The translations under genes and the position numbers were made by a program. The notes beneath the pieces were generated by a model. The model saw nothing but the letters and a program-made list of their open reading frames with translations, was not told the origin of the DNA and searched no databases. 64,000 nucleotides of DNA from Candidatus Woesearchaeota archaeon (GTDB taxonomy: Archaea > Nanobdellota > Nanobdellia > Woesearchaeales > JAGLGH01): positions 17,932-81,931 of the forward strand of contig DAOVBM010000001.1 in the NCBI GenBank assembly GCA_030670545.1. The letters run 5' to 3'. Each line of letters begins with the position of its first letter. The stretch's first letter is position 1. Of this stretch, positions 7,301 through 63,950 are shown in pieces.

Positions 7301-8900
7301 TGGTTGTGAGTCCCTACATCACCAGTTTCTATATAAACCCCTGATACTGAACCTATATCCGAGGGGCTGGAAAGATATCTTCTCCAGAAGGGGGAAATTT
7401 CATTGGTACCTAAATCTTCAAAGTAATAATCTACTGTTGCTGAAGATGCATTTCCCTGGACAGTCTGTTTGGTCATAAAATATGTTGGGGCTGCATATGA
7501 TTTTGTGATTGTCCAATTAAAAGCAGGAACAAAAGATGCAGAGGAATGATTATAACTATCATTTGTCAGTTGTATCCTCACTAACTCTCCCATTGTAGTC
7601 TCGAACTTCCCAAGAAGCATATCAATATCATTTACATCTATTGAGCCGTTGCCAGTTCTCTTAAATTCTATTGTAATATTATGTTCTCCTGAACTCACAT
7701 TAATAAGGAAAGGTTTTGTGCCAGTAGAGCCTTCATCGTCAATATCTTCAACTGTTCTCAATTTCTCCTCTAATTTCGCAATATTATCTACCTTAATCCT
7801 CACCCATACATCATTAGCTCCAAGGCCTGTTAGTTTCTTGATATTCATTGAAGAAAAGAAACTTAAATTTACACTAGGTCTTGATGTGTTGAACAGCTTA
7901 AGCACGCCAATCACATAATCTGAGCTTGCAAAAGAGAAATTTGTAGTATCAAAATCAACTCCAAAGATGGAAGTATTGCCTCTGACATAAAAGTATGTCT
8001 CTTCTGTATCATTGATATTATTTGATGTATCATTGGCAGTAAATGTCATATTATACCTGCCAAGCAGGAAAGGCGCTGTGAAGGAATTATTGTACTTGTC
8101 TCCTGCTGCATTGCTCAGTTCAACCAATTCACTTGTTCCGTTCGGATAAGTGATATTGGCGCTTACATTAGCCACTGCAAAAAAATCAGTGACATTAGCA
8201 GCTATCTCTATTATATCAGAAACATTGAAGTGTGAGTCTGCTGTTGGAATAAGGTCAAATACTGAAGGTCGCGTAGTATCATTCACATAAAAGAATGATG
8301 CTGTCGTGTTTGTGTTTCCAGATGTATCATTGGCAAACACGGTGATGTTATATCTTCCAAGCGCAGTGAGATTCGCAGACTCAAATACAAAGTCAATTGC
8401 CTGATCTGTCAACTGCTGCAACAAGATGCCATTAGGATAAGTTACATTGGCCATCACTAAATCAATACCTACATTTGATGCGTTAAAGTCTATTAACACA
8501 GACTCAATACCATACTCTACTTCTGTATCATTCACTGAGATATTTATTGTTGGCGGAACAGTATCATTCACATTGAAGTATGCTGTTGATGTATTCACAT
8601 TGTTGGATGTATCATTGGCAAATACTGTAATGTTATATCTTCCAAGAAGTGTAAGGTTTGCTGGAACAAGGATTATATCTTCGCTTTGATTTGTGAACTG
8701 CCCTAATAGTGTTCCGTTCGGATACGTGACATTTGCTATCACTGAATCAAGGAACTGGTCAGATGCATTGAAATCTATGCTTACAGATTCAATTCCATAC
8801 TCTGCATCTGTGTCATTTACTGATATGTTTATCAAAGGATATACTGTATCTGTTGAATTGACAATATCCAAAGTATCGCTTGCAGTTTGGTAATACTCTT
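400..8900 (-). repeat. Intragenic tandem array of ~285-bp (~95-aa) repeats inside the giant surface-protein gene. Several copies are more than 85% identical at the nucleotide level.
   Basis: Recurrent strings such as gtgtcattcgcaaacactgttatgttgtatcttcc and ctggctttgatctgtgaactgcc appear at 1065, 1340, 1625, 1925, 3425, 5705, 6000, 6290, 8330 and 8620. Confidence 0.85.
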
Positions 8901-11900: not shown

Positions 11901-12957
11901 TTATGAATTCTTCAACATCCGAGTCTGAGATATAATCTTCTATAGTGATATTTTTGATGATATGATTTACTGGCTTGATGATGACCTTATGCTTTCCTGC
12001 ATGGAGATTTACTGCAGTCCTGTTTTTCACTTTCGTTGCTTTAAATTGATTATCCTTGTCTGCCTGTCCCCCCTCTAAGCTTATGCTCTCTTCAATATTT
12101 CCTGATGTATCATAAAATTCAATATGCGCTTCTATATCATTACCTGCTGCATCTTTTATTGTAGCATTGAATGTTATATTCATGCCTGTGATGTTTAAAG
12201 CAGCAAACTCACTCAAATTAAAGATTACTGATCTATCCTCCTGAACTGCATCAGAATCAACTATAAAGGATAGATGAAGTTTAAGGATATGGACATACAG
12301 GCCTGCAACATCATCTTCCTGGATAAGCAGCAATTCTGAAATGGGTTTCATTAGCGTAGGAAGCAGGAATTTAATAGCAGCCTTATCACTGTAATATATT
12401 TCTGAATATATATCTGTATGATCTAGGCTGTAATCGACATAAAGCAGTCTTGCAGAAATGCTATTGTTCTTAGCTATTCCATATTTACTTTCAAAAATAT
12501 ATACGTCATTATCCCATTTATCATTGGAAGGCGCAAAGTCAATAAATTCACAGCATTTTGCTGAGCCATGGCAGAATGATGTTGTGATTTCATTATCAAA
12601 AGAATAAATCTCCCAGACAGAGCAGAGGTTGGAATAGTTAAGGCGGGGTATGACAATGCTGTCATTGATAGAAAATCCAATAACCCCTGCTCTTTCCAGA
12701 TCTGAGAGATTCGAAAGAATATGAAGATCTATTTGAAGTTCAGGATCAGTATTTTTATCAGAAAATGTGAAGCAAGCAAAGCATATAAGTATAATAATGC
12801 AGCATATAAGAAATAATAAATTCTTTAAATCAATCTTAGAATCCCTGAATGCTATAAGCTTATAAATCTTATAGCTATAATTATGTTTGCTGCATAATTT
12901 TAAATGCATTGTCATGGCCTGCCTATAATAAAGTTTTATCGCCTTAAACGTATACAT
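1324..12957 (-). CDS. Giant secreted/surface repeat protein, 3877 aa. It has an N-terminal hydrophobic anchor/signal, about 25 tandem ~95-aa beta-rich repeats (consensus ...TINISVNDTEVEYGIESVSIDFNASDQFLDSVIANVTYPNGTLLQQLTNQS...LGRYNITVFANDTSGNTNT...), and a ~440-aa module duplicated internally. N-x-S/T sequons are extremely dense, which fits a heavily N-glycosylated archaeal cell-surface or adhesin-like protein.
   Basis: Single uninterrupted ORF of 11.6 kb. The N-terminal residues 47-63 (LLFLICCIIILICFACF) are hydrophobic. The repeat periodicity is visible at both the protein and nucleotide level. Confidence 0.85.
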   Translation of the reverse strand: MYTFKAIKLYYRQAMTMHLKLCSKHNYSYKIYKLIAFRDSKIDLKNLLFLICCIIILICFACFTFSDKNTDPELQIDLHILSNLSDLERAGVIGFSINDSIVIPRLNYSNLCSVWEIYSFDNEITTSFCHGSAKCCEFIDFAPSNDKWDNDVYIFESKYGIAKNNSISARLLYVDYSLDHTDIYSEIYYSDKAAIKFLLPTLMKPISELLLIQEDDVAGLYVHILKLHLSFIVDSDAVQEDRSVIFNLSEFAALNITGMNITFNATIKDAAGNDIEAHIEFYDTSGNIEESISLEGGQADKDNQFKATKVKNRTAVNLHAGKHKVIIKPVNHIIKNITIEDYISDSDVEEFIKMEELNISEHEELGSYVQAYAIDPTAMNFTTANVTVIAKGTTLYKCREWNFSEQECYGEWNLFKTGLVPGQEYTFELTPDDPAFGEVNESTYYLFNASDSQYPAYHQMKNESVGITGYTSAPLDLSVPGVVCFPEKWIAPNWTTQTIVNGTWNFSIFGDCSASNPDAFLFAKILKYNGTEYNPFNTTTATSNICAAADFNNWGDNVPYSDDLNLSSGERVGVQFCVNITGAAAKFAYIQWENTEYSYVKFPSASLIIDNELPQITLLGPSDNYTTGPTDIDFTFKAVDISAPLNCSIYIDDVLNQTNESTSSDTTTLFTVPGLSIGNHSWFINCTDTEDNSNISETRNFTITAGLPTAQITYPSSGLNISDPSPLITFVLTDDTTPDINYTIFVNDTANGQNGTVTNGSSTNLSISPALDIGDYTITVQATDDDGNSVNSTPITITIVPPLVYLVSPENNYADKDGDINFTFYVVDPAHDNLNCSLYINDILNQTNSSTNESINTTFEVSGIAEGTNQTWKVECIDPAETAASNQRTFTVDKTKPSIELNSPDNDYTTNETVVYFNWTATDNIDTILLCNLTIDGIVNMSDYYSPNGSAVSHDVQGFADGSHSWNVTCWDDATNANTSETRNFSVDTLAPTINITYPVNGSTYYELNLTLNWTFTEDYPNKCWYNLNNNATNTTIADCSDLYANFTAIDSAWNNITMWINDTSNNMNQDNVTFYAMAQTAPNITNVTITPKYNSIYVSTLNDMHCNYTYNDTQGDPDQSTIAWYKNNVLTSFTGATVQYQNTSLAEQWICEVTPYDGIIYGSPINSSYAEIGTERTNITVSDNATIYVGPEPNNYYTIWAYYTDEDDNAILGASCSTDGTPDVTLSDGDNDGNYTHNYQSSVTGPKTHTFICSKTNYQTQNTLIRTVTVLNHPTNLEGGQNATDIGYGSHVNFTANYTDANTSALLTGAACNVSLAGYGTFDMTETGAITYEVIVQFTQPGEFTPFVSCSKEYYQTASDTLDIVNSTDTVYPLINISVNDTDAEYGIESVSIDFNASDQFLDSVIANVTYPNGTLLGQFTNQSEDIILVPANLTLLGRYNITVFANDTSNNVNTSTAYFNVNDTVPPTINISVNDTEVEYGIESVLIDFNASNVGIDLVMANVTYPNGILLQQLTDQAIDFVFESANLTALGRYNITVFANDTSGNTNTTASFFYVNDTTRPSVFDLIPTADSHFNVSDIIEIAANVTDFFAVANVSANITYPNGTSELVELSNAAGDKYNNSFTAPFLLGRYNMTFTANDTSNNINDTEETYFYVRGNTSIFGVDFDTTNFSFASSDYVIGVLKLFNTSRPSVNLSFFSSMNIKKLTGLGANDVWVRIKVDNIAKLEEKLRTVEDIDDEGSTGTKPFLINVSSGEHNITIEFKRTGNGSIDVNDIDMLLGKFETTMGELVRIQLTNDSYNHSSASFVPAFNWTITKSYAAPTYFMTKQTVQGNASSATVDYYFEDLGTNEISPFWRRYLSSPSDIGSVSGVYIETGDVGTHNHTIQSKTSAGTVTVDFALAEFDLKDNNLNLIDNFQVSNPLTNLTSSQNYSAGLHNLVNKTVTIQNGTQYFISMSSSFGTASGNQTPIYFINSSDVPESLCYSKKERYLSSDLDIGNAFIYMVCKNLTVGNSYTFNLWLEVASGETVEQFDESLNGFELSQLDIVSVNVAPITNEITNPAQGDHESGIINITWSAFSDPNGDPVTYNVSLFNSDDSFNQTINTSTSLTNQLFNSSTVPDGDWMIYVEGCDDGDLCSNSSTNFTIDNTLPTINISVNNTEIEYCAESVSIDFNASDQFLDSVIANVTYPNGTLLQQLTNQSVDFEFESANLTALGRYNITVFANDTSGNTNTTASFFYVNDTITPTINISVNDTDVEYGVESVNIDFNASDTCLDSVIANVTYPNGTLLQQLTNQSIDFEFEPANLTALGRYNITVFANDTAGFSNTTTSYFNVNDTIAPTINISVNDTEVEYGIESVSIDFNASDQFLDSTTANVTYPNGTLLGQFTNQSEDIILVPANLTLLGRYNITVLANDTSSNTNTSTSFFNVNDTTAPTWDQTPQNQVTEYNESFSYDVNASDNYLVDKYFINDTNNFAINSSSGLITNATTLTPVIYYLNISVNDTSNNINSTAIQITVQDNIDPVLNITYPINNSTYYSLNLTLNWTYTEDYPDKCWYNLNNNATNTSISDCSSLYVNFTAIESAWNNITMWINDTSNNIDEKDVTFYVRTQTAPNVTNVTISPTYDGANVSTLNNMTCNYTYNDTEGDPDQSTIAWYRNDTLTSFTGATVSYQNTSIGDQWLCEVTPYDSISYGVPVNSSDVEINVEPANLSVSANATIYAGPAPNNNYIIWAYYTDEDDNPILGANCSISGSPSSILPDLPVEDGNYSKNFNWTILGAKTHTFNCSKENYQRLDTISRTVTVINHPTKVVGEENTSTIELGDSVLITANYTDTDTNISISGANCDVDIPGMGTYDMDETNVSVYQVVINFNQTGQYSPQILCSKEYYEGANVFINTINTSDTTPPDITLIAPVNGTYNGNITFSFNASDLSNEIYSCLVYLNSTFNVSNQSSVVTNGTNYINLTDRQNETFLWHIECTDANNITGYSDNRTISIDNLAPGVILSSPPNATTILNSSVEFICNATENMAALTNITLYHNISGSFAANETDTVSGLSNSSTFSLTGIADGSYIWNCLAYDSLGNSGWDDNNFTITIEAEPPEINISINDSYLQSGVESVSIDFNASDLDLDSVIANVTYPNGTLLQELTNQSVDFIFAPANLTAVGRYNITVFANDTFGNANISASGFDVFVFKWYDNRTYPSGIVYYIPDNSYQFNISWNLTADTVYFEHNFTGTLQNYSATGNESQEFYYNYTNIQPGSYIWRSYANDTNSTWYTSEQWTYDIIPLANYTLNGTLVDGDGNFLNASFMIYNSTGHLVYSSNESYDFNFSGTEEYDMQVTAMYDPTIDNYWIRGLFNNTNMTDTIMGGYNASLAHSIIDPSGLNYDSLVIEKKPVSTENQIFFKCDGTYNLSNYTCLGVWRPWFNIKSSDYANYTFSPGDPALSEGNGTFFEDFESGNLSTNNWTTSGAGVAWFIASTSPFAGIYNAEAENTVGESIVETNISTWGYINISFSFYANTERLDAGEYIAADWYNGTAWINVLSIEDITDYTLYSYNLTSNADNNHDLKIRFRCLSSSNNEICQIDNAYVTGTVVDVDSPTINISVNGTDVEYSVESVSIDFNASDPNLDSVITNVTYPNGTLLQELTDQSIDFIFVPANLTAIGRYNITVFANDTAGNTNTSTSYFNVNDTIAPIINISVNDTDVEYGVESIQIDFNASNGLLDSVIANVTYPNGTLLQQLTNQSVDFLLVPANLTAIGRYNITVFANDTSGNINTSTAYFNVNDTIAPTINISLNDTDVEYGVESIQIDFNVSNVGLDSVIANVTYPNGTLLGQFTDQSQDIILVPANLTALGRYNITVFANDTSGNTNTSTSM

Positions 12958-13532: not shown

Positions 13533-13645
13533 TAGCATCATAAAGTCAAAATTCCTTCTATAACCCCTCCAGCTCGTCGCGGGGGGTTGTCCCTTACGGG
13601 GACGCAGAGCTTGCGTTAACCCTTTGAGAATTTTGAAGATGCTAA
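13533..13645. repeat. R1 MITE-like element copy. It has a degenerate 5' end, a GC-rich hairpin core (gctcgtcgcggggggttgtcccttacggggacgcagagc) and the ttttgaagatgct arm.
   Basis: Alignment with the copies at 19872-20040 and 60435-60610. It overlaps the last codons of the gene at 13616..14464. Confidence 0.65.
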
Positions 13646-14464
13646 ATCAATAAATTCTTTATATGTATCATCAGTAAATAATCTCTTTATCTCAATGCTG
13701 ACAGCATTGCAGTCTACCCTTATATATCTGGGGCAGATAGTGTATTCAAGATTGTTTGAATGGCAGTAGTTTATAACTTTTTCTTTTTCTTCATCATTGC
13801 TGAAGCAAACTGCTATGTTTATGCCTTCTTTGCCTGGATGGATAATCTTATACCCCTCAAGGTCTTTTATTATCATGCTGCGTATGTCTCTAATCTTTTG
13901 CAGTCTCTCATCCAATGTTTTCAGCCTTTCAGCCAGACTCTTGTCTGTAGCAATCTCTTCTATCACAATTATGCCAAAATAATTCTTGTCTTTTACTCCT
14001 ATGAATGCTCCTTCTCCATAACTTACAGGCTTGTCTTTGCCAAAAGAGCATACGACAATATCTCCATACTTTGCATTATCTGTTCCAATTGAGCCTGTAA
14101 TGTCATTTATAATAAGACATCCTTTATCCATGCATATTTTTTCAACTGCCTGCATATCCTCAAGAGCAAGATAGCCAGGCATTGAATTTATAAGAAGAAC
14201 AGAATCATTATCTGCTTTTGAAAAAAGTTCATCTTTGTCTGTTATGCCAAAATCTGTCTTCAGCTCGACTGTATCCATCTTCATGCGAAAGGGATACTGT
14301 CTATAGGTTATCCAGCCGCCCTGATCCTGTATAATGACCTTTGTCCTGCCTAAAGCCTTTGCTATCCTTAATGCATAAAGGATTGCTTTGTTTCCTCTTT
14401 TGACAAGTTTTATGTCCGCGCATCCTGTAAGTTTCAGTAGCTTATCCTTAATTTCTTCCAACAT
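13616..14464 (-). CDS. Short PLP-dependent-enzyme-like protein. It has fold-type-I / DegT-ArnB-like motifs: GCADIKLVKRGNKAILYALRIAKALG and a candidate PLP-lysine in CSFGKDKPVSYGEGAFIG.
   Basis: Motif resemblance only. At 282 aa it is shorter than canonical family members. Confidence 0.35.
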   Translation of the reverse strand: MLEEIKDKLLKLTGCADIKLVKRGNKAILYALRIAKALGRTKVIIQDQGGWITYRQYPFRMKMDTVELKTDFGITDKDELFSKADNDSVLLINSMPGYLALEDMQAVEKICMDKGCLIINDITGSIGTDNAKYGDIVVCSFGKDKPVSYGEGAFIGVKDKNYFGIIVIEEIATDKSLAERLKTLDERLQKIRDIRSMIIKDLEGYKIIHPGKEGINIAVCFSNDEEKEKVINYCHSNNLEYTICPRYIRVDCNAVSIEIKRLFTDDTYKEFIDLASSKFSKG

Positions 14465-16816: not shown

Positions 16817-17833
16817 GTGGGGCATATGACTCCAGAACAGGCAGCAAAAGTAAAAGAACTTGCTGAAACACTAAAGAACAGCGGACTTGCTGCAAGCACA
16901 TTGCAGGCAGTTGAAAGAGCAAAGGATATTATTGGGATTCCTGATGAGAATAATGAGCTTCTTGAAAAAGAGCTTGGCTTGAAAAAAGAAGAAGCAAAGG
17001 AAATAGAGAAGCAGATTGAAGATCTCAAGGAAGAGCCAGATCCAGAAGCAGCTGGACAAGTGCAGAAATGGGAAGAAGAGTTGAAAGAAGATGTTGGAGA
17101 GTTGGAAGAGCAGAAAGAGAATATAGATACAGTTGAGGAAACTGCTGCAGAAGAAACTGAAAGCGAAGAAGATACAACCGAAGCAGAAGAAGAGACAGAA
17201 GAGACAGAAGAGACTGAAGAGACTGAAGAACAACCCGAGGAAGAAGATACAACAGAAACTGAGGAAGAAACTGAAGAGGAAGTAGAAGAACAGCCTCAGG
17301 AAGAAGATACAACCGAAACAGAAGAAGAGACTGAAGAGGAAGTAGAAGAACAGCCCGAGGAAGAAGATACAACCGAAACAGAGGAAGAAACAGAAGAGGA
17401 AGTAGAAGAGCAGCCTCAGGAAGAAGATACAACCGAAACAGAGGATGAGACTGAAGAGGAAGTAGAAGAACAACCAGAGGAAGAAGATACAACCGAAACA
17501 GAAGAAGAGAGAGAAGAGGAAGTAGAAGAACGACCAGATGAAGAAGAAACACCTGCTGCACAAGAAGAATTAGATGAGTATGAGAGAGAATTCCAAAAAG
17601 CTGAAGAAGGAACAAGAGAAATGGCAGAAGAGTTAGAAGAAACACAGCAAGAGGAAACTGAACAACAAGATGCGCCTAAAGAAAACAACAATGAAATCAT
17701 GACAAATTCTGATAAAATATTAAATCAGACTGAAGAGAATAGTCAGAATTATGACATATCCAATGATGTAAGGACTGTTGATGAGATATTTGCAGAACTA
17801 GATACCTCTGTCAGGAAAGATGAACCGCAGTAA
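16817..17833 (+). CDS. Highly acidic Glu/Thr-rich repeat protein of unknown function. The N-terminal ~90 aa are helical and the centre is a low-complexity E/T/D array.
   Basis: A strong Shine-Dalgarno (taggaggtgggg) lies 5 nt upstream of the ATG. There are five tandem 60-bp units. Confidence 0.6.
   Translation: MGHMTPEQAAKVKELAETLKNSGLAASTLQAVERAKDIIGIPDENNELLEKELGLKKEEAKEIEKQIEDLKEEPDPEAAGQVQKWEEELKEDVGELEEQKENIDTVEETAAEETESEEDTTEAEEETEETEETEETEEQPEEEDTTETEEETEEEVEEQPQEEDTTETEEETEEEVEEQPEEEDTTETEEETEEEVEEQPQEEDTTETEDETEEEVEEQPEEEDTTETEEEREEEVEERPDEEETPAAQEELDEYEREFQKAEEGTREMAEELEETQQEETEQQDAPKENNNEIMTNSDKILNQTEENSQNYDISNDVRTVDEIFAELDTSVRKDEPQ
17225..17530 (+). repeat. Five tandem 60-bp units encoding EEDTTETEEETEEEVEEQP(Q/E).
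   Basis: Near-identical 60-nt periodicity. Confidence 0.85.
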
Positions 17834-19809: not shown

Positions 19810-19871
19810 TTGGAATCAGCTATTATGATTTTATTTTCATACTTTAATAATCTTTGCATTGAATATATCTA

Positions 19872-20040
19872 TCTAGTCTATTATTTAAGGAGCACCAGCA
19901 TCATCACGTCAAAACTCCTTCAATTTTTGAAGTCTTGCTCGTCGCGGGGGGATGCCCCCTGCGGGGACGCAGAGCCGTCTAAAAATACTTCCTGAGTTTT
20001 GAAGATGCTCGTGCTCCTTTATATCTGACTAAATACTTAC
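19872..20040. repeat. R1 MITE-like element copy with the aggagcaccagcatc arm, the core hairpin gctcgtcgcggggggatgccccctgcggggacgcagagc, the arm gaagatgctcgtgctcc, and the 3' TIR gactaaatacttacc.
   Basis: Alignment with 60435-60610. Confidence 0.75.
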
Positions 20041-20047
20041 CATTGAA

Positions 20048-21742
20048 TTACATCTCCTCTGGCGCTTCTATGCCAAGAAGAGCTAATCCATTCTTTAATA
20101 CCTGCCTTACAGAGTCTGCCAAAGCAAGCCTTGCTTTCATTACATCTTCTTCAGCTCTAAGGATTGGGCAGTTATGGTAAAACTCATTGAATTGCTGTGC
20201 AAGATTAAGCAGGTAGTGGCATATCATTGAAGGCTTGTAATGTTCAGCGCTGTCATTGATTAATCCAGGGAATTGCTTAAGCAGTATAACAAGCTTTTTT
20301 TCATAGTCTGAATTAAGCAGTGAATAATCAGCATCATAATCAATATCCTTTCCATACTTTCTGAATATGCTGCATATTCTTGCATGAGCATATTGTACAT
20401 AAGGCCCTGTCTCGCCTTCAAAAGATATAGACTCCTTAGGATTATAGAGGAAATCTTTTGCTGGTTCATATTTAAGGATATAAAACTTCAATGCTCCTAT
20501 TCCTATCTGAACTGCGCGTCTTTTGATTTCATCTTCAGGAAGGTCATGCCTTTTTTTGATCTCTGTTTCAGCGAGCTTTTCCATATCATCCATCAGGTCA
20601 TCAGCATTAACAACAGTGCCTTCTCTGGACTTCATCTTGCCTTCTGGAAGATTAATCATGCCATAGATTAGATGATAGCATTTCTTTGCCCATTTATGTC
20701 CAAGCAGCTTGAGTATAACAAAAAGCTGCTGAAAATGAAGATTCTGTTCTGATGCGACAACATATATGCTTCTGTCAACCCCAAACTCTTTTTCCTTAAG
20801 CTCAGCAAGATATATATCCTGTGTTATGTAAAGTGATGTGCCATCTGACTTGAGAAGCACTTTATTAGGAATTTTGAATTTTTCAAGATTAGCTATTACA
20901 GCTCCCTCATCTTCCTCAAAGATTCCTTGTTTCAGGCCTTTTGCGACTATATCCTTTCCTTTCTTGTATATCCTGGTTTCATAGTATATCTTATCAAAGA
21001 CACATCCCAGCCTCTTGTATGTAATATCATAGCCATCATATACCCACTTGCTCATCTTTTTCCATAGTTCTATTGTCTTTGGGTCACCTTCCTCAAAGAG
21101 CTTGTTCAGTTGCTTTGCTTTGTCTTCAAGCTCAGGATCATCTTTTGCCCTGCTGCCGAATTCAATATACCATTTGGCAACAAAATGATCGCTTTTAATG
21201 TCTGGCTCCTGATTATTGCCCCATAATCTATATGCAAGCATTGATTTTGCAACTCCCATCCCTTTATCATTCATAAGGCATGTCTTTATTACCTTATAGC
21301 CTGAAAATTCAAGAATATTAGAGAGCGCAATACCTAAAAGATTGTTTCGCACATGCCCTAGATGCTGCGCCTTGTTTGTGTTTGGAGAAGAATATTCAAT
21401 CATAATCTTTTCATCTTTGGATTTTTTGGAGCCGTACTTTTCTTTATGTTTCTGGATATCTTTAAGTGTTGTTTCTCTAAGCAAATTCTGATTTACAAAG
21501 AAATTAAGATAGGGGCCTGTTGGTTTTGCTTCAGAGAGATATTCCGTTGGCCTGAATTTGGCTGCAATATCTTTTGCTATATCATTAGGACTTTTCTTCA
21601 GCTGTTTTGATAATGCAAAGCATGGAAATGCATAGTCTCCCATCTTTGGATCAGGAGGTATCTCTAGGGGGATATCTTTGAGTTTTGTCTCTGTTTTAAG
21701 GAAGTTTATTGCATCCTGCCTGAATTTATCCATTCTTCTCAA
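20048..21742 (-). CDS. argS: Arginyl-tRNA synthetase.
   Basis: HIGH-type motif SSPNTNKAQHLGHVRNN, an MSK-like motif KMKSREGTVV, and an ArgRS-type C-terminus. Confidence 0.85.
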   Translation of the reverse strand: MRRMDKFRQDAINFLKTETKLKDIPLEIPPDPKMGDYAFPCFALSKQLKKSPNDIAKDIAAKFRPTEYLSEAKPTGPYLNFFVNQNLLRETTLKDIQKHKEKYGSKKSKDEKIMIEYSSPNTNKAQHLGHVRNNLLGIALSNILEFSGYKVIKTCLMNDKGMGVAKSMLAYRLWGNNQEPDIKSDHFVAKWYIEFGSRAKDDPELEDKAKQLNKLFEEGDPKTIELWKKMSKWVYDGYDITYKRLGCVFDKIYYETRIYKKGKDIVAKGLKQGIFEEDEGAVIANLEKFKIPNKVLLKSDGTSLYITQDIYLAELKEKEFGVDRSIYVVASEQNLHFQQLFVILKLLGHKWAKKCYHLIYGMINLPEGKMKSREGTVVNADDLMDDMEKLAETEIKKRHDLPEDEIKRRAVQIGIGALKFYILKYEPAKDFLYNPKESISFEGETGPYVQYAHARICSIFRKYGKDIDYDADYSLLNSDYEKKLVILLKQFPGLINDSAEHYKPSMICHYLLNLAQQFNEFYHNCPILRAEEDVMKARLALADSVRQVLKNGLALLGIEAPEEM

Positions 21743-23253: not shown

Positions 23254-23690
23254 CCGCTGCTTGCAGTGGCTGGGTATGGCTAATGATTATATGCATGGTA
23301 TATTTTTATGACCAAAAACCCAATGTAAGATTATACCCCCCTCTTGCGACGATTGGATTTTTGATTTATCTTCAATTGCTTTGTTCAGGTTTTTGATACT
23401 TAGTATACCCCCAGTCTGCGACTGGTGGATTATATTGTGGTATACTAAGCCCCAAAATTAGCAACCCTATCCTGAAAGGCGAGCATGCCACCAGTCTATG
23501 ACTGGTGGTGGTTGCTAATTTTTGACATAGTCAAATCCTATTCCATCAACCTAAAGGTTGGGGTATTTACGGATTTGACATTATTCTTGGTCAAATTTTT
23601 GGGATTAAAAATTTCGCACTAAAGTGCTAGGTATTTAAACTCCATTAGAAAATTCCACTATGCGAAATTTTCAATAAGCCTACATTCAAG
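23254..23690. repeat. R2 modular structured repeat. It has three decaying ~75-bp hairpin units, the twin-palindrome module I (23393-23527), module B, and module A in inverted orientation.
   Basis: Modules align to 59596-59895 and 36265-36420. Confidence 0.7.
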
Positions 23691-28597: not shown

Positions 28598-28690
28598 TAC
28601 CTTAACTTAATGACATTGGTTGTCCCTTACAGGGACGCAGTACCTTCTATGAACAGGGCAAGGGTTTTGAAGGTATTAGTAGATGCAAAT
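28598..28690. repeat. Degenerate R1-related fragment (ggttgtcccttacagggacgcag ... gggttttgaagg).
   Basis: Similar to the hairpin core and 3' arm of the 13533 copy. Confidence 0.4.
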
Positions 28691-48130: not shown

Positions 48131-48973
48131 TTATCCCCTTGGGAATCTAGGCATTCTTCTATTTGGCAAAAACCATTTATACAAATAACGATAAGAATAT
48201 GTTATTTGTCTTTCTATAACACTATCTGTAAATCTATTTCCTGTAGGGATATGAACATCTTGATTTCTCCAGTTTCTTGCAATTTGTAAGCCAGCAATAA
48301 CATAATATTCGAAATATTTCTTTTCAACTCTTTGTGGCTTAATTTTGGGCAGAATATCAATAAAATTTCCTAATGTATGTGTATCAGTTTGAATATATCT
48401 TCTTTTAAATGTTCCTAATCTTATTGGAGTTTTAGGATTACGTAACTGATCTTTTCTATTTTGGTCATAATCAAATTTATTGATTAAATAACCCTTTTTT
48501 AAAAAAATCCCTTTTAGCAAAAATTCAAATCCCAATCCAAGATACACTCGATTCAGATAGTTTCTATCAAAAAAACTCACAAAATCAAAAGGACCATGAT
48601 ATAACCCGAAAAAATACTCTGCTTTTTCAACAAATTGAATCCAATCATTCTTTTTATATTTATAATATACTTGTTTTGTTTTTTTATTAAACTTTACCAA
48701 ATCAAATGTAGCATTTGGGATCTCATCTTTTATTTTTCTTCTAATTTTATTATCTATCTTGCTTCGTCGCATATTTATAAGACGCAGGATCTCATAATAA
48801 TAGTATAATGATGTTGTATTCTCAATAGAATTAATATAACCATTAACAATTGATCTATGATTTGCTGGCTTAGCACACTCTATATGCAAAACATCTATAA
48901 GCTGTCTAATTTCTATAGGAGTAAGTATATTTCTTATTTTTTTACAAATCATAATACCCATAGTTATGCTCAA
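48131..48973 (-). CDS. Hypothetical protein (280 aa) in the AT-rich insert.
   Basis: Continuous ORF. It has an RNWRNQDVH segment, which is only a weak HEPN-like Rx4H match. Confidence 0.45.
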   Translation of the reverse strand: MSITMGIMICKKIRNILTPIEIRQLIDVLHIECAKPANHRSIVNGYINSIENTTSLYYYYEILRLINMRRSKIDNKIRRKIKDEIPNATFDLVKFNKKTKQVYYKYKKNDWIQFVEKAEYFFGLYHGPFDFVSFFDRNYLNRVYLGLGFEFLLKGIFLKKGYLINKFDYDQNRKDQLRNPKTPIRLGTFKRRYIQTDTHTLGNFIDILPKIKPQRVEKKYFEYYVIAGLQIARNWRNQDVHIPTGNRFTDSVIERQITYSYRYLYKWFLPNRRMPRFPRG

Positions 48974-49070
48974 TTATATAAATTAATTGTAAATTATTCA
49001 AAAAACTTATGCTATCACGCTTAATAATCACATTTAAATATTTTTAGATAATCTCATCTATTCAAAAACT

Positions 49071-49937
49071 TCATTTAATTAATTCTTTAATCTCCTTATA
49101 GCTTTTTTCATATTTTTCCTTTCTTTTTCGAGATTTCTCATTTATATAAGCACAAATGTAATAAGAATGGATGATTGTTCCAATCTTAAGATTCTTCAAA
49201 AAATTATCATGAACATAAATTTTATTATTTGAATTTTTATACAATCCTGATTCAAAAAAAGCTAATATTAGATATGGAGGAATAATAAAATAATCTGGGA
49301 TAGATAATATAAAACATTGTTTTAATTCATCATATTTTTCCAGTTGTTTATTAGAGATGTTATCATTTATCCATTTTAATCCGCGATTAATATCAAATAT
49401 AGCCTCCAAAATTGGCTTTAAAATTAAATCTTTATAATAAGATGATCGCTCAAACTCTTCCAGAGTTATAATTGAATTGTTATTAGAAATAATTTCTTTT
49501 AATAATTTACAAATGGTCTCCATGTCTCTTTTTACTCTATAAAAATTCATTTCCTTACCTTTTTTTGTAAGAATTGCATATCCTAATATTTTATTATTTT
49601 CTCCTCTTTCCCTACTTGTTAAATCATTTAATTTATCAAAATTTTCTTTTGATAGGTTATTTAGTTTTAAAAAAGTGTTTTTATCGATTGTTTCTTCCTT
49701 GATAAATATTCTTAATTTCTCTTTCTCACAGAAATTAAATTCTTGACATAATCTTTTGTCTAAATAAGTATCACTATGAGAATCAATAACTTTTTTAGTA
49801 TTTATATCTCTCATTGCATGATATACTGGAACAAAACCACCCACTAATCTTTCAGGTATTTTATCCGCTTTATAATCTCGGATTTTATCATAATTTAAGA
49901 GGGTTTTGAGTATCTTCCAATCTTTTTTTGACGTCAT
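49071..49937 (-). CDS. Hypothetical protein (288 aa) in the AT-rich insert.
   Basis: Continuous ORF. Confidence 0.45.
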   Translation of the reverse strand: MTSKKDWKILKTLLNYDKIRDYKADKIPERLVGGFVPVYHAMRDINTKKVIDSHSDTYLDKRLCQEFNFCEKEKLRIFIKEETIDKNTFLKLNNLSKENFDKLNDLTSRERGENNKILGYAILTKKGKEMNFYRVKRDMETICKLLKEIISNNNSIITLEEFERSSYYKDLILKPILEAIFDINRGLKWINDNISNKQLEKYDELKQCFILSIPDYFIIPPYLILAFFESGLYKNSNNKIYVHDNFLKNLKIGTIIHSYYICAYINEKSRKRKEKYEKSYKEIKELIK

Positions 49938-50273
49938 TGTTCTTCTTTAAATTTTAATTTAAAGTAATATTTAAACTTTCCGAGATTGTGAGGTTACTAT
50001 GTCTTGATATGACAAATAAATCCCAAAATTTTGCCATTCAATTTTTATATAGATTTTTGTTAAATCTTACTATGATTCAACGGAATTTAATAAACAACGG
50101 ATTCAGCCTTATGGTTTGATTGATAAGATATTGGATCCTGAAAAATGAGTAAGGGAATCATTATCTAATAATTTAAAGCAATCAGGAGGTGAAAAAAATG
50201 AATAATGATGAAGAATTAAAAGATAAACTTGAAAAAATGCCAAACATTGTTTTTGTTACATTAAACCTTGATT

Positions 50274-50492
50274 TTAATCTTTTTTCTCATCCTTTTTTTG
50301 ACTTAATTTTTTATTTAATTCTTTTAGTTCTTTCATTTTTTCTTTATGTCTTCTATCAGCTTCAAACATTATTATTAATACAACCCAGATAATAAAACCA
50401 ATTAATCCTAGTGTTGATGTTAAAATAAATAAACCCAAAAAAGCAATAGCTACAGTAATAAATTGTCCAAGTGTTTCAGTTAAATCTACCAT
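50274..50492 (-). CDS. Possible small 2-TM membrane protein. It conflicts with a Shine-Dalgarno-led plus-strand ORF at 50198..50392.
   Basis: Both frames are hydrophobic in AT-rich DNA, so this is ambiguous. Confidence 0.25.
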   Translation of the reverse strand: MVDLTETLGQFITVAIAFLGLFILTSTLGLIGFIIWVVLIIMFEADRRHKEKMKELKELNKKLSQKKDEKKD

Positions 50493-50555
50493 TTTTTCTT
50501 TCCATTTAATCTATACAATATAATTAATTAATTTTTTCTTCATAATGACTTATAA

Positions 50556-50939
50556 TCATCTACTAAATTCTTCAAATCCTTCATCAGTCTCTACTTGAAC
50601 TGAATATATCATATTTTGATTAACTGCAAATTTATTACAAGTTACTGCATTCACAGTAATAGATTCACTAGGTTTTAAAACATCTGTCTCCCAACAAGAA
50701 TAATAATCATTAACAGTAATATTTACATTATGCCAATCATAATCATTTCTATTTATAACACGAATAATAGTACCCATTGAGCTAAGTTCACCAATCTCTA
50801 CTTCTAATTGTGCTCTCTTTACAGGCTGGCTTTTAGAATCACTATTGTCTATTGTATAACTTGTTTCTCCACAGCCATAAAGAACCAATAGACTTAATAT
50901 ACATATTCCAAATATCAGTTTTTTGTCCATAATTATCAC
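50556..50939 (-). CDS. Secreted/lipoprotein-like small protein with a signal peptide and a Cys (LVLYGCG).
   Basis: N-terminal hydrophobic segment followed by Cys. Confidence 0.45.
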   Translation of the reverse strand: MIIMDKKLIFGICILSLLVLYGCGETSYTIDNSDSKSQPVKRAQLEVEIGELSSMGTIIRVINRNDYDWHNVNITVNDYYSCWETDVLKPSESITVNAVTCNKFAVNQNMIYSVQVETDEGFEEFSR

Positions 50940-51026
50940 CTATTACTTCAATCCTTTTTATAGATTGGGGTATCTTCCACAATATAGTGGAATACTAATA
51001 TATAAATCTTTCCACAATATAGTGGT

Positions 51027-51245
51027 ATGCCTAAGAGAACACATCAAGAAATTAGAAAAACGATATTAAAAGCACTAATTGATGGAAAAGAATGTACTTA
51101 TGGATCTTTGGAGAGAAAAGTAAACACAAATTGGCAAACCATAAGAAAACATTGCAAAGATTTACTGCTCTTTGATGCAGTTACTATTTCTAATGATAAA
51201 ATCAAAATAACAAAAGAAGGCAGAGAACTTCTGAAAAAGCTTTAA
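51027..51245 (+). CDS. Small winged-helix DNA-binding protein.
   Basis: 72 aa; helix-turn-helix-like segment ECTYGSLERKVNTNWQTIRKHCKDL. Confidence 0.45.
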   Translation: MPKRTHQEIRKTILKALIDGKECTYGSLERKVNTNWQTIRKHCKDLLLFDAVTISNDKIKITKEGRELLKKL

Positions 51246-51304
51246 TTTTGGAATAATATATTTAAAGAAGTAAACATTATATAAAAATATAGGAGGTACA
51301 TTAA

Positions 51305-51478
51305 AATGAATGATGATGAATTATTGAACGAAACAGCAAGAGCATTGTATAATTCAAATAAACAATCTGGGCACAGGAAGATTCCTTCTTTAAAGGGTAT
51401 TTCTGAGAAGGAATCAATCAAAGAGATTAAAAAAATGCTGATAAAACTAAAGGAAAGGTGGGAAAAGAAAGATAGTTA
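51305..51478 (+). CDS. Small ORF (57 aa) with a strong Shine-Dalgarno (aggaggt), absent from the ORF track.
   Basis: Its N-terminus MNDDELL and its upstream region are paralogous to 50183-50222. Confidence 0.35.
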
Positions 51479-51624
51479 AGTTTTTCTAAAGTCTTAATTA
51501 ATCCAGAAATGTCTTAGTTTTGTAATTTCTACTTGGTTTGTTCTTCAATTATCTCTAAGTCTGTGGGATTGTCAAGACTCCAATGCTTTGCCTTTTTATT
51601 GTACTGCACTACAACAGAATGAGT

Positions 51625-51701
51625 TTATGACCGTGAACTGAAGTAATATTTTCCAGTTATGACACCGAATGATATGCCTATGATGATGGCAAGGATTATC
51701 T
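51625..51701 (-). pseudogene. Truncated N-terminal remnant of a TctA-like gene (MFTQIILAIIIGISFGVITGKYYFSSRS*).
   Basis: 80% nucleotide identity to the TctA 5' end at 47781-47840. Confidence 0.65.
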
Positions 51702-51760
51702 GAGTGAACATGTATTATGTGATTTGGAGTGGGTTTATATGTTTGTGGGGGTTAGATTCG
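51662..51760. repeat. Right copy of the ~100-bp direct repeat.
   Basis: See 47781-47880. Confidence 0.75.
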
Positions 51761-51785
51761 GAAGATTTACAAGAAGTTGTTTTTG

Positions 51786-52370
51786 TTAATCCAGCATGCT
51801 TATTCCGTCCCTCTTAATCTCAGTGGTTAGTTTATTTTTGTTATTGAAAGATTTTTCAGTGAAATAATGTACTTGTATCTCTTTTCTGAACTTTTGTTCC
51901 AGCTTTTTTACAAATCTGGTAATCTCTATTTCTGACCTAATTTCCTTTTCAAAGATTACTGCCAAATCAATATCAGATCTTATAGAAGCAGTTCCTTTAG
52001 CCCATGAGCCAAATAATATTACTTTCCTGACATCCGTTGTATATAATAATTGTCTTATAAATTCGGAAACTATTATTTTCACATCATAATCCAAGAATCT
52101 AGTATTTTTTTTTTCACTTTCCCATAATTCTCTTATCAATTTTGTGTAATTATTATCCATATTAATATAATAGAACTCTTTTTTTCCTTTTTTTTCCAGA
52201 AATATTATGCCTGCTTTAACAAGCCTTGATAAACCTTTGCTCAAAGGGGCATTGCCCAGTTTTGTAAATTCAAAAAGTTCTTTTCTGCTAACTAATTTTC
52301 GTGGAGTTTCAAATAATAATGAAAGAATTCTCAACGATGATTTATAACCCAGTATAGGTTCAATCAGCAT
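51786..52370 (-). CDS. Minimal nucleotidyltransferase (MNT) with an N-terminal winged helix (ILFGSWAKGTASIRSDIDLAV).
   Basis: GSxAxG...SDIDL motif. Confidence 0.65.
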   Translation of the reverse strand: MLIEPILGYKSSLRILSLLFETPRKLVSRKELFEFTKLGNAPLSKGLSRLVKAGIIFLEKKGKKEFYYINMDNNYTKLIRELWESEKKNTRFLDYDVKIIVSEFIRQLLYTTDVRKVILFGSWAKGTASIRSDIDLAVIFEKEIRSEIEITRFVKKLEQKFRKEIQVHYFTEKSFNNKNKLTTEIKRDGISMLD

Positions 52371-52969
52371 TTTAATCTCTCCATTATTAATGTATATGGT
52401 TTTACAACAGCATTGATAAAAATTCTTGCTTCATTAAGCCTGTCATCAGCCTTAGGCAAATTTCGATCAGAAGAATAATAAGTATATCTTTTTCTCTTAT
52501 CAGCACTTTGCTTTAGCATTACAGGCAGAGTTTCTTCAGAATTTTTCTTTAAGACAGTAAAAGAATTAAACTCTTTTTTTGCTTCTTCCAATAAGTTCAA
52601 TATTTTCTTTTTTAATCTCTTGTCTTTTACAAATTCATCAAGGACTATTAAACAATTAGTATGCACGCCAATATCTTTCTCGCTTATTTTCAGATTAAAG
52701 TACTTTGCAAGATTCCATAGAGTAACATTCAAGACTGCATAATAGCCCGCAATTACTGCGTATTTAGAGTTACCTAATTCCAAAAAAGTTTCAGAGCTTC
52801 CTAAATCAATCTTATAATTATCCAGATGGAAAGAAACGTACTTTTCTTTTTCAACCTTTTCCAGCTTTTTAATAAGCTGCCTTTGCAACAATTCTTGGTA
52901 TGTTACCATTTTTGGTTCATTTTTATACTGATAATGGTATACTTGTATATAAATATTTCGATTATACAC
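52364..52969 (-). CDS. HEPN-domain protein (GYYAVLNVTLWNLAKYFNLKISEKDIGVHTNCL), forming a HEPN/MNT pair.
   Basis: Motif resemblance, plus a 7-nt overlap with the MNT gene. Confidence 0.5.
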   Translation of the reverse strand: MYNRNIYIQVYHYQYKNEPKMVTYQELLQRQLIKKLEKVEKEKYVSFHLDNYKIDLGSSETFLELGNSKYAVIAGYYAVLNVTLWNLAKYFNLKISEKDIGVHTNCLIVLDEFVKDKRLKKKILNLLEEAKKEFNSFTVLKKNSEETLPVMLKQSADKRKRYTYYSSDRNLPKADDRLNEARIFINAVVKPYTLIMERLKC

Positions 52970-53176
52970 TATTTTTGGTTTATACTTGGTTGAAAAGTAA
53001 TTTAGAGGGATTCTTATTTTCCACTGCTACTATCTCACTCTAATTGCATCATATGCGTTGCTTATACTTATTTCTTCAATCTCTCTGGCTGCCATCAATC
53101 CCCTGAATTTAAGATTATTTATATACTTATATGAGAAAAAACCAGAGATATTGCGATAACACCCAACTACAGAACT

Positions 53177-54007
53177 TTATGACTGGTAAAACTCGTAACA
53201 GAATCCGCACTTGCCATATCCAGCAATTAAATCTTCTACATCCCTCTCTTTCCATCCGTCATGGACTGCCAGGCTTTCAAGTCCTTCATTGTTCATTATC
53301 ATTAATCTTTCATCCTTTTTTGCTTGTCTGACAATCTCAACAAGAGGTTTTTCTATGACATTCCCCGGCAACTCAAAAAAACTGAAACAGCAGAGATAGA
53401 CCTTTCCATCTTCCCTTATTGAAATGTCATATCTATCCAGACTATTTTCACAGTAATCATAGTCTATATAACAATTTTTTAAATTCCTGCCTTTTGCCCT
53501 TCCTATAGGCATAACAGAACGATTTGATGCGCCTCTTAGTGAGACCGAAAGTAATCCACTTTCTTCAGCTTTCTTTTTTAATAGGTTCAGATTCTTTCTC
53601 TTAATCCCCCACTCTCTATGATATTTGTCATTTGAAGTTATGTCCAGGGCTTTGACATCCAGATCAACCAAATCATTCAATGTAGATTTTATTTTTTTAT
53701 AATTCTCTGCCCAGGATGCGTTAGTCTGTAATATTACCTCTATTCTTCCTTGTCTTTTAGATAATCTTTCAATATTCCTGGATTTAATATACTCCAGATA
53801 GCTGAAAAGAGTATCTTTTATAGTAAACACTTCTCCTCCAGTCAGAGTCAATTCAAGAGAAACTTTTGGAAGGTGATCAATCACACTTTTAAATCCATCT
53901 GCGCTGATTGTCGTATCCAGATTGTCAGGTCCTGCTTCAAGATAGCAATGCCTGCATCTGAGATCACAATTTTTGGTTATTACAAAGTAAATGTCAGGTT
54001 TTTCCAT
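53177..54007 (-). CDS. Radical SAM-domain protein (CDLRCRHC Cx3Cx2C) with additional C-terminal Cys residues.
   Basis: Canonical cluster motif; family not assigned. Confidence 0.65.
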   Translation of the reverse strand: MEKPDIYFVITKNCDLRCRHCYLEAGPDNLDTTISADGFKSVIDHLPKVSLELTLTGGEVFTIKDTLFSYLEYIKSRNIERLSKRQGRIEVILQTNASWAENYKKIKSTLNDLVDLDVKALDITSNDKYHREWGIKRKNLNLLKKKAEESGLLSVSLRGASNRSVMPIGRAKGRNLKNCYIDYDYCENSLDRYDISIREDGKVYLCCFSFFELPGNVIEKPLVEIVRQAKKDERLMIMNNEGLESLAVHDGWKERDVEDLIAGYGKCGFCYEFYQS

Positions 54008-54128
54008 TTTTGATAGGCTAAAAAATAAATTATCTTAATAAGAATATTATTAGATTTATAAATGTTGAGTCATATAATCCCCTAGAGTAGTCTATAATTC
54101 ATCCAGCTCAATTCTGAACGTAGTGCGT

Positions 54129-54944
54129 TCACTTTAACCTTGGTTTATTCTTATTCTCAACTTTCTTAATACTATCGGTTGGAGGCAGATTTTCAGGCAT
54201 AGTCCCACCTAACTCCTTTATTGTCTGCCTTATTTTTTTGCCAACCGCGAAATGAGTTTTATTAGCTTTATCTTTCCCTTTTATTTTTTCACGCCTTAAT
54301 TTTTCTTCGGTTTGTGTTGCTCTAAACAGATTTGCTGCAAGCTCAGTAGTTCCCATGTGGTCAAGTATTCTTTGGCTTTTCTTTAGCTCTTTTTTAGCTT
54401 GAATCTCCTTACTTCCTAATCCCCCATAAAGCCCTTTGTAGCCATGATTTTGAAAAATAGAATATTCTCTTGGGCTTACAACTCCTGCTTTTTTTGCAGA
54501 TTCTGCTAGTTTCTTATTATGGGTTCGCATCTCATTTCTTAAGAACAATCTTTTTTCTTCTTCTGATTTAAATTTTAAATACTTGTTCTGTTCTAGGATT
54601 TCCTGTTTTCTGGTTTGTACTGCAAAATAAGTCTGTCCAAGAGCTACAATCTCCTTGGAAGGATCTGCATTCTGGACAATCAAATAACATGCATAACGAG
54701 ACAAAGCATAATCCTCTATCTCCCTTTTTGCTCCAGAGCCTAACTCAACCTTTTTGGCTAGGTGGACAAAATGGTCTACAACATCTTGATTTGAGTTAAA
54801 GCAGGATTTTTGGGCCTTCTTAATAACATTCTCAAACTTTCGCCATTCAGCATAATCTAATGCTTTCTGTAAATCTCTTGCAGACCAGAAATAATTGCCA
54901 AACTCATTGACTTGCTTGATATTTTCAAAGATTAATTGATTCAT
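54129..54944 (-). CDS. DinD-like protein (DNA-damage-inducible protein D family; Bro-N-like N-terminus, SRYACYLIVQNADPSK).
   Basis: Recalled similarity to DinD N-terminal region. Confidence 0.5.
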   Translation of the reverse strand: MNQLIFENIKQVNEFGNYFWSARDLQKALDYAEWRKFENVIKKAQKSCFNSNQDVVDHFVHLAKKVELGSGAKREIEDYALSRYACYLIVQNADPSKEIVALGQTYFAVQTRKQEILEQNKYLKFKSEEEKRLFLRNEMRTHNKKLAESAKKAGVVSPREYSIFQNHGYKGLYGGLGSKEIQAKKELKKSQRILDHMGTTELAANLFRATQTEEKLRREKIKGKDKANKTHFAVGKKIRQTIKELGGTMPENLPPTDSIKKVENKNKPRLK

Positions 54945-55096
54945 TTTATATTCTCTGTTTTATGCTATTAGTAATATTTGGATGTATACTTAACATGTTA
55001 TTGTGGTAGCATTTATATGTTTATCGTCTTTAAAATCGGAAAATCTCCGAAAGACTTGAACTTGCTCTAAATGTTTCAATTACAAATTAATAAACA

Positions 55097-59595: not shown

Positions 59596-59895
59596 GTTTT
59601 TATTATCGAAAATTTCGTAAGAAATTTTATTGGGGTTTAATACCCCTCACTTCAGTGCGAAATTTTGGATTCCAAAAATTTGATACTTAGTATACCACCA
59701 GTCTGCGACTGGTGGATTATATTGTGGTATACTAAGTCCCAAAATTAGCAACCCGAGCCTGAAAGGCGAGCATGCCACCAGTCTATGACTGGTGGTGGTT
59801 GCTAATTTTTGACAATCTATAATGCAAATCCTATCCCCACCATAAATTTGGGGATATTACAGATTTGCTATCAATAAATTGTCAAATTTTTATTA
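59596..59895. repeat. R2 copy with all modules: A, the twin-palindrome insert I (59685-59815), and B.
   Basis: See 23254-23690 and 36265-36420. Confidence 0.8.
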
Positions 59896-59905
59896 TTAAC
59901 ATTAT

Positions 59906-60377: not shown

Positions 60378-60434
60378 TTTACAAAACCTCCTTCCATTAT
60401 GGTTTTGCGATGGGTTTATAAAAGTTTTGCAAAA

Positions 60435-60610
60435 GGGTAAGTAAAAAGTCTGCTATTCAAGGAGCACCAGCATCATCAGTCAAAACTTAATCTTTTTCCT
60501 TATCCTGCTCGTCGCGGGGGGAAGCCCCATCCGGGGACGCAGAGCCTTCTAATAACTCATCCCAAGTTTTGAAGATGCTTGTGCTCCTTTGCATCTGACT
60601 TTTTACTTAC
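60435..60610. repeat. Best-preserved R1 MITE-like element. TIRs are GGTAAGTAAAAAGTC/GACTTTTTACTTAC, the inner inverted arms are GGAGCACCAGCATC/GATGCTTGTGCTCC, the core is a GC hairpin, and it is flanked by the 7-bp direct repeat GCAAAAG.
   Basis: Read directly from the sequence. Confidence 0.8.
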
Positions 60611-60701
60611 GCAAAAGCTGTTGTAACTATCCTAAAATAGGAACATTTAAATAATAATAAAATTATAAAAAAATCATAATTAACATCAGGGGGGATTAGA
60701 A

Positions 60702-63898: not shown

Positions 63899-63950
63899 AT
63901 AGGTAAGTAAAAAGTCTGCTATTCAAGGAGCACCAGCATTATCAGTCAAT
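63899..63950. repeat. 5' part of another R1 element copy (aggtaagtaaaaagtctgctattcaaggagcaccagcattatcagtcaa).
   Basis: Matches 60436-60485. Confidence 0.6.

Follow-up and report, generated by a model that had tools for sequence, protein, structure and literature searches.

The repeat at positions 60437–60610 of the window, the whole 64-kb stretch of DNA that was analysed, raised the question of whether a short, strongly folded sequence is a mobile element, a structured RNA or a regulatory site. The repeat, which we termed R1, was 174 bp long on the + strand and contained no ORF of at least 50 aa in the ORF list. A preliminary description had placed here a MITE-like element of about 175 bp with perfect terminal inverted repeats (TIRs); the place and the perfect repeats were borne out, and the precise length was found to be 174 bp. 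The parts of this copy and its immediate flanks were as follows.

60429–60436, no strand: left 8-bp target-site duplication, GCAAAAGG, its last base mutated from C by comparison with L010 and the L011 empty site
60437–60610, + strand: complete young copy of R1, the probable MITE, 174 bp, ORF-free, one long hairpin
60437–60450, + strand: left TIR, GTAAGTAAAAAGTC, from the TIR motif scan
60461–60474, + strand: second arm stem, 5′ strand, GGAGCACCAGCATC, pairing with 60574–60587 at 13 of 14 positions
60480–60488, + strand: third arm stem, 5′ strand, TCAAAACTT, pairing with 60564–60572, the sole stem with double-sided changes elsewhere
60506–60545, + strand: GC-rich core, TGCTCGTCGCGGGGGG-AAGC-CCC-ATC-CGGGGACGCAGAGC, 40 nt, 75% GC, its two short loops variable
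60564–60587, + strand: 3′ strands of the third and then the second arm stem, AAGTTTTGA, one unpaired A, GATGCTTGTGCTCC
60597–60610, − strand: right TIR (GACTTTTTACTTAC on the + strand), the reverse complement of GTAAGTAAAAAGTC
60611–60618, no strand: right 8-bp target-site duplication, GCAAAAGC, present as a single GCAAAAGC at the L011 empty site

The TIRs were 14 bp long and perfect, and they were retained in the related loci L001–L004 and L010. The base just outside GTAAG differed by copy (G, C, C, T, A), which indicated that the end of R1 is truly GTAAG and that the TIR of 15 bp proposed earlier has to be shortened to GTAAGTAAAAAGTC and its reverse complement. The left duplicate in the window carries a C-to-G change, and this explains why the element had been read with a 7-bp duplication, GCAAAAG, and a repeat of 15 bp; the duplication in fact spans 8 bp, GCAAAAGG on the left and GCAAAAGC on the right. 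The second inverted arm pair described previously was present with one mismatch (GGAGCACCAGCATC/GATGCTTGTGCTCC). The arms, approximately 50 bp and AT-rich, folded back around the 40-nt core, whose GC content of 75% compared with 36% in the whole window agreed with the earlier account of a very GC-rich core in an AT-rich genome. The core motif occurred three times in the window, against zero expected.

A search of the 64-kb window by BLAST and nhmmer --max recovered six copies or remnants of R1, two of them young and four decayed or truncated, and nhmmer --max found no copy in the window beyond these six. The five further copies listed in the preliminary description all existed, with the following boundaries.

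1–144, + strand: variant copy, cut by the window edge; it keeps the 3′ arm of R1, and its right TIR, GGCTTATTACATAC at 131–144, is decayed
13534–13643, + strand: old remnant, inner part only (AGCATC...core...GATGCT), 74% identical
19857–20048 including duplications, element 19865–20040, + strand: older complete copy, 81% identical, with decayed TIRs ATATCTATCTAGTC and GACTAAATACTTAC
28598–28680, + strand: oldest remnant, consisting of the 3′ half of the core and the inner 3′ arm, approximately 55% identical overall
63903–63949, + strand: 5′-terminal segment of about 48 nt of a young copy, 98% identical, with an abrupt end

The family thus made up approximately 1% of the window in copies of several ages. 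The view that these copies are progressively degraded did not hold for the copy at 63903, which was 98% identical over about 48 nt and then stopped abruptly; this copy may have been truncated or interrupted, or it may be the terminus of a longer element that extends beyond the window. The copy at 19865 had decayed TIRs and a perfect 8-bp duplication, CATTGAAT, at 19857–19864 and 20041–20048, the right duplicate overlapping the TAA stop codon of the arginyl-tRNA synthetase (ArgRS) gene. In the variant copy at 1–144, the core was replaced by four tandem palindromic units of 24–26 nt. These units had the form ACTTRR-stem-loop-stem-YYAAGTT, and their stems differed by paired changes.

The window genes identified by Pfam or homologue search (TldD/PmbA, ArgRS, IMPDH and NOG1) were archaeal housekeeping genes, and the best protein relatives of the window genes were labelled Woesearchaeota or Nanoarchaeota. 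Further neighbour genes, judged from their translations, presumably encode a DnaG-type primase, aEF-1beta, a zinc-ribbon protein and a Trm1-like methyltransferase. R1 insertions lay outside coding sequence and close to genes. The intergenic placement noted in the preliminary description was borne out. The 3′ part of the 13534 remnant supplies the ORF at 13616–14464 (− strand) with its stop codon and the eight codons before it. The 28598 remnant was placed between the IMPDH and NOG1 genes, and the 60437 copy lay between divergent genes, just outside sequences on each side that appeared TATA-like by eye. All six window copies were oriented the same way round (p approximately 0.03), a point that counts against reading R1 as a MITE. 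In six of seven unambiguous cases from the window, L001 and L003, R1 was antisense to the neighbour genes, a tendency that was suggestive and not significant. A composite transposon made of the copies at 60437 and 63903 was considered and rejected, because these copies are direct rather than inverted and flank housekeeping genes.

Orthologues of the adjacent TldD gene were used to find the insertion site of the 60437 copy in other strains. In L010, a JGI contig whose TldD was 94% identical, R1 was found at the same place with a perfect GCAAAAGC on both sides. In L011, an ENA contig with a TldD of 86% identity, the same intergenic sequence contained a single GCAAAAGC without R1 and read ...ttttGCAAAAGCagttgtaac... 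The filled site of L010 and the empty site of L011 together established that the duplication is 8 bp and that the boundaries of R1 are GTAAG...CTTAC. Each of the four complete copies, two in the window and two in other Nanoarchaeota MAGs, had its own 8-bp duplication, and the duplications differed by site: GCAAAAGC at window 60437 and L010, CATTGAAT at window 19865, TAATGCTC at L002, and TTATTATT/TTATTCTT at L003, the last with the pattern TTATT(A/C)TT. A second empty site was provided by L012, in which a single AAAGATAA was present within ...cataAAAGATAAggagttga..., and at the same position in L003, R1 lay between AAGAATAA and AATAATAA. The S2 ribosomal protein of L012 was 96% identical to that of L003, and the upstream leader was near-identical. 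Insertion polymorphism was therefore observed at two orthologous sites, L011 compared with the window and L010, and L012 compared with L003, and R1 is mobile.

R1 was short and non-coding, had TIRs and a duplication that varied with the site, was polymorphic for insertion and occurred as multiple dispersed copies. We consider it to be a MITE, that is, a non-coding DNA transposon that is unable to move alone and is mobilised in trans, with a probability of about 0.88. The non-autonomous MITE reading of the preliminary description thus gained support from the precise empty sites in L011 and L012 and from the site-specific 8-bp duplications. That description had also held that other copies without GCAAAAG flanks would speak against a mobile element; this expectation was misplaced, since the flanks of a mobile element are expected to change from one insertion site to the next. 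In the mechanism that we propose, a transposase of the DDE type encoded elsewhere would bind the 14-bp TIRs, excise or copy R1 and place it into a target cut with an 8-bp stagger; repair of the cut would leave the 8-bp direct duplication. The GC-rich core and the long fold-back arms would most simply be passenger or structural sequence of the active lineage.

Two contigs ended inside R1, L014 (a Logan contig of the same strain) and L001 (a MAG contig). A solo R1 end of 27 nt (TAAGTAAAAAGTCAGATGTAAGGAAC) was also seen at L012:5112–5140, exactly where the synteny between L012 and L003 stops, and this is consistent with an R1-mediated rearrangement.

Among GTDB-representative genomes, the R1 3′ arm was found only in two Nanoarchaeota MAGs, JAGLGH01 and JAYEPB01, and R1 was present on three contigs of JAGLGH01. 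The young copies (window 60437, window 63903, L010 and L001–L004) were 88–95% identical to one another across three genomes, and the older window copies were 54–81% identical in the identity matrix. Between genomes, R1 identity was 91–94%, the window 60437 copy having 93.6% identity with the L002 copy and 91.3% with the L003 copy. The TldD of L012 was only 59% identical to the window TldD; this was the only pair for which protein divergence could be gauged, and L012 stands here for the L003 lineage, because its physically linked S2 gene is 96% identical to that of L003. At such a TldD distance neutral DNA would be saturated, and the similarity of the copies points to recent activity of R1 in both lineages. 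On this comparison of sequences, R1 has probably spread horizontally between Woesearchaeal lineages, by movement of either the element or its helper. R1 had no match in phage and plasmid collections by blastn, and none in IMG/VR by scans with the TIR, the core or the 5′ arm. Five loci (L005–L009) obtained from metagenome and IMG/VR scans with the 3′ arm were rejected as chance matches of 20 nt in coding sequence (peptide FEDAGAP) without a partner arm. The orthologous R1 copies of the window and L010 had eight differences, five of which clustered in the core loops (window 60516–60531, L010:194–209). In L010 these loops were changed from AAGC to TTGT and from ATC to TTA, which is the core type of the 13534 and 28598 remnants, a switch most simply read as gene conversion among the copies or as a chimeric assembly.

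If R1 is a MITE, it requires a helper. Pfam scans of 30 window ORFs and ten ORFs of L001–L003 revealed no transposase domain, and neither a Y1 transposase nor a DDE_Tnp_IS66 domain was present among the scanned ORFs; for the window, this agrees with the absence of a transposase noted earlier. Neither the window nor 16 loci yielded an autonomous element with R1 TIRs, and the sole extra TIR match in the window was the truncated copy at 63903. Because R1 has no coding capacity, the Pfam scans were free of transposases and the only extra TIR match was that copy, we infer that the helper is encoded elsewhere. In the IS66 family, the terminal inverted repeat starts with GTAAGCG and the direct repeats are 8 bp (PMC11946415). 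ISDge4, a member of the single-ORF ISBst12 group, has the TIR GTAACTGCTCAGCA and an 8-bp direct repeat (PMC12898284), and Pseudomonas IS66 members have ends of this type as well (PMC12888890). A census of archaea records every one of the 27 annotated IS families, IS66 included, in Nanobdellota (PMC13343696). The R1 end GTAAGTA matched the IS66 consensus GTAAGCG at five of seven bases, in GTAAG only, and the 8-bp duplication of R1 agreed with the direct-repeat length of IS66 and ISBst12. To our knowledge, no other family in the ISfinder family table combines GTAA ends with an 8–9-bp duplication. Since R1 shares its GTAAG ends and its 8-bp duplication with the published signature of IS66/ISBst12, our best guess, which we hold tentatively and at a little under even odds, is that an IS66/ISBst12-like transposase of the same genome acts in trans to drive R1.

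The MITE may instead be moved by a non-IS66 family that duplicates 8 bp (IS1595, ISL3, IS256, IS6, ISH6 or IS1) or by an undescribed archaeal family, a possibility to be taken seriously and one that we put somewhat below even odds. Several IS families make 8-bp duplications in the ISfinder family table, R1 agrees with the IS66 end consensus in GTAAG only, and no IS66 gene was found among the ORFs scanned in the window and L001–L003, all of which favour such a helper. However, the ends of IS1595, ISL3, IS256, IS6, ISH6 and IS1 are GG..., GGnnnTG or similar and not GTAA, and the base outside GTAAG is unconserved, so that GTAAG is the real end to be accounted for.

The strong fold of R1 raised a further question, whether the core has been retained for a function of its own. 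R1 folded as a single long hairpin with z = −6.9 on the + strand and −5.7 on the − strand against shuffled controls. The consensus fold was judged on a nine-copy alignment, in which 94% of cells pair. Double-sided changes occurred in five pairs in this alignment, against 1.5 in shuffles and one to three in slid controls; two of the five were in the arm stem TCAAAACTT/AAGTTTTGA and came from the copies at 13534 and 19865, and none fell in the central GGGG/CCCC hairpin of the core. The cores differed among copies in their loops (AAGC/ATGC/TTGT and ATC/ATA/CTT/CTG/TTA) and by one change from G-C to G-U. Compensatory substitutions had been claimed for the core hairpin, but its stem showed only the G-C to G-U change and the variation lay in the two loops, so the claim was unsupported. 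Among young copies, 14 of 104 paired columns were variable compared with 25 of 70 unpaired columns (p = 0.0008), a difference that is biased because the fold was predicted from the same sequences and that is therefore only a hint. To that extent this difference, together with the few double-sided changes in the arm stem, hints at a constraint on the fold of R1 beyond what the footprint of a transposase needs, and it counts against reading the fold as passenger sequence alone. Counts of G-U against A-C, which are biased by the derivation of the structure, gave no clear strand for a putative RNA.

The oldest remnants, at 13534 and 28598, had no TIRs and kept GTCCCTTAC(G/A)GGGACGCAG nearly intact, and GGGACGCAG was invariant in all nine copies. 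Such retention would be expected if the core of the MITE had been co-opted as a selected structured RNA or protein-binding hairpin (serving as a terminator, a stabiliser or a regulatory RNA) that persists after the ends decay. The lower variability of stems than loops, a fold much stabler than that of shuffled sequences, and the presence of the L003 copy in the rpsB leader, 12 nt from the Shine-Dalgarno sequence and without obvious harm, fit this explanation as well. We regard co-option as unlikely, because the core stems had no compensatory change, there was no Rfam match, orientation to the neighbour genes varied, and the two old remnants, the only ones of this kind, are both explicable by partial deletion and chance. 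A more elaborate form, in which the 40-nt core would be a selected module (an RNA or a protein-binding hairpin) carried on a transposon shell, crossing divergent Woesearchaeal genera and kept as a remnant, seems to us quite improbable. If it were true, the variant copy at 1–144 would be an example of a modular system with a hairpin cassette in a MITE shell.

The fallback suggested earlier, that R1 is a structured RNA gene that has spread, fared poorly. Rfam 15 at gathering thresholds gave zero matches over the whole window, a relaxed Rfam search of R1 gave only C/D snoRNA models with E values of 0.4–0.95 and less than 40% of the gathering score, and ARAGORN detected no tRNA genes in the window. 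A K-turn or C/D box based on the CUGAUGA/UGAAGA motifs was rejected by hand, because the GA·AG geometry and the C-to-D spacing were absent on both strands. We judge it very improbable that R1 is a small structured RNA gene family or a retro-transposed SINE-like RNA: the strong predicted fold on both strands and the weak C/D-box-like matches can be cited in favour, but the Rfam matches are at chance level, the core shows no covariation, R1 has no promoter or terminator architecture in common with a known family, insertion was precise at both ends at the L011 and L012 sites, and TIRs with 8-bp duplications are hallmarks of a DNA transposon moving by cut-and-paste or copy-paste. It is barely credible that R1 represents a fixed palindrome with a cis-regulatory role, or a repeat of the REP/BIME type that spreads through a Y1 (RAYT/IS200-type) enzyme or by recombination that leaves no duplication: R1 is intergenic and palindromic and other hairpin-module clusters exist in the same genome, but REP and IS200/IS605-type elements make no duplication whereas every complete R1 copy has one of 8 bp, two empty sites show a single target, no Y1 was found among the scanned ORFs, and a regulatory site would be expected to stay at orthologous positions, whereas R1 is polymorphic there.

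Several other features of the window and the related loci were recorded. A conserved, hairpin-rich stretch of about 100 nt, possibly a leader or a small RNA, lay between a strong TATA-like box and the start of rpsB (S2) in L012 (5180–5265) and L003 (3535–3620). The R1 copy of L003 was inserted between this stretch and the Shine-Dalgarno sequence. A second repeat family, composed of consecutive hairpin modules and without an Rfam match, was found at 59597–59900, 36257–36405, 23392–23680 and L012:4975–5110. Its module A (59597–59685) was 97% identical to 36257–36345, and module B (59679–59831) was 92% identical to 23392–23544 and missing from the 36257 copy, so that it looks like a nested insertion; the module junctions read AAAATTTGAYA and TGTCAAATTTTT. 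In a giant ORF of 3877 aa and an adjoining ORF of 391 aa (152–12957, − strand), a repeat of 285 nt (95 aa) occurred at least 11 times, and the product of the giant ORF is probably a surface or adhesin-like protein. At 31728–40707 (− strand), about eight genes of 237–428 aa stood in tandem, and at least five of them were clearly paralogous. The genes of this array had common internal repeats (families D4, D7, D9 and D19), and Pfam gave no match for the five array genes searched. The region 47779–55049 was low in GC (25–29% at 48–52 kb) and carried a conserved motif of about 50–110 nt (TGATTTGGA...TTTATATGTTT...) four times beside minus-strand genes, possibly as a shared promoter or leader. At least seven tandem 60-nt repeats were located at 17105–17638 inside the ORF at 16817–17833 (+ strand), where the region has a strong purine skew. 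Two paralogous Fic/DOC-domain genes (42296–43270 and 44010–44960, − strand) lay about 1 kb apart, and a 44-nt sequence was repeated near both, at 43971–44014 and 44979–45022.

With R1 read as a MITE, its significance lies in ongoing transposon activity in a reduced, streamlined DPANN genome and in its consequences: it breaks contigs (L001 and L014), marks a synteny break (L012), has reshaped the 3′ end of a gene and occupies the leader of a ribosomal gene. Near-identical R1 copies at 59% protein identity could serve as a marker of recent DNA exchange among uncultivated Woesearchaeales. Among known systems, REP/BIME units and the Correia elements of Neisseria are short palindromes of intergenic regions, and they can be co-transcribed and influence neighbour genes; REP elements have no target-site duplication and depend on RAYT, and Correia elements have TIRs and a target-site duplication, as R1 does, but duplicate TA only. 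R1 has in common with both the shape of a short intergenic palindrome, whereas it duplicates 8 bp and is archaeal. IS66 and ISBst12 elements resemble R1 in the first five bases of their ends, 5′-GTAAG (family consensus GTAAGCG or GTAA), though not in the two bases that follow, and in the 8-bp target repeat; they are 1.3–3 kb long with a transposase, in contrast to the 174 bp of R1, which has no transposase gene. R1 is a well-documented but ordinary kind of element that leaves knowledge of the MITE mechanism unchanged. MITEs have been reported in bulk for DPANN genomes, and like R1 the catalogued prokaryotic and DPANN MITEs are shorter than 300 bp, non-coding and intergenic, with TIRs, a target-site duplication and a fold-back structure (PMC11602168). 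The density of R1 in this window, approximately 94 copies or remnants per Mb, compares with 105 MITEs per Mb in one Woesearchaeal genome (PMC11602168). The same census stresses the taxon specificity of DPANN MITEs (PMC11602168), whereas R1 is 91–94% identical between genomes, although the TldD of L012, which is linked to the L003 lineage, has diverged to 59% identity with that of the window.
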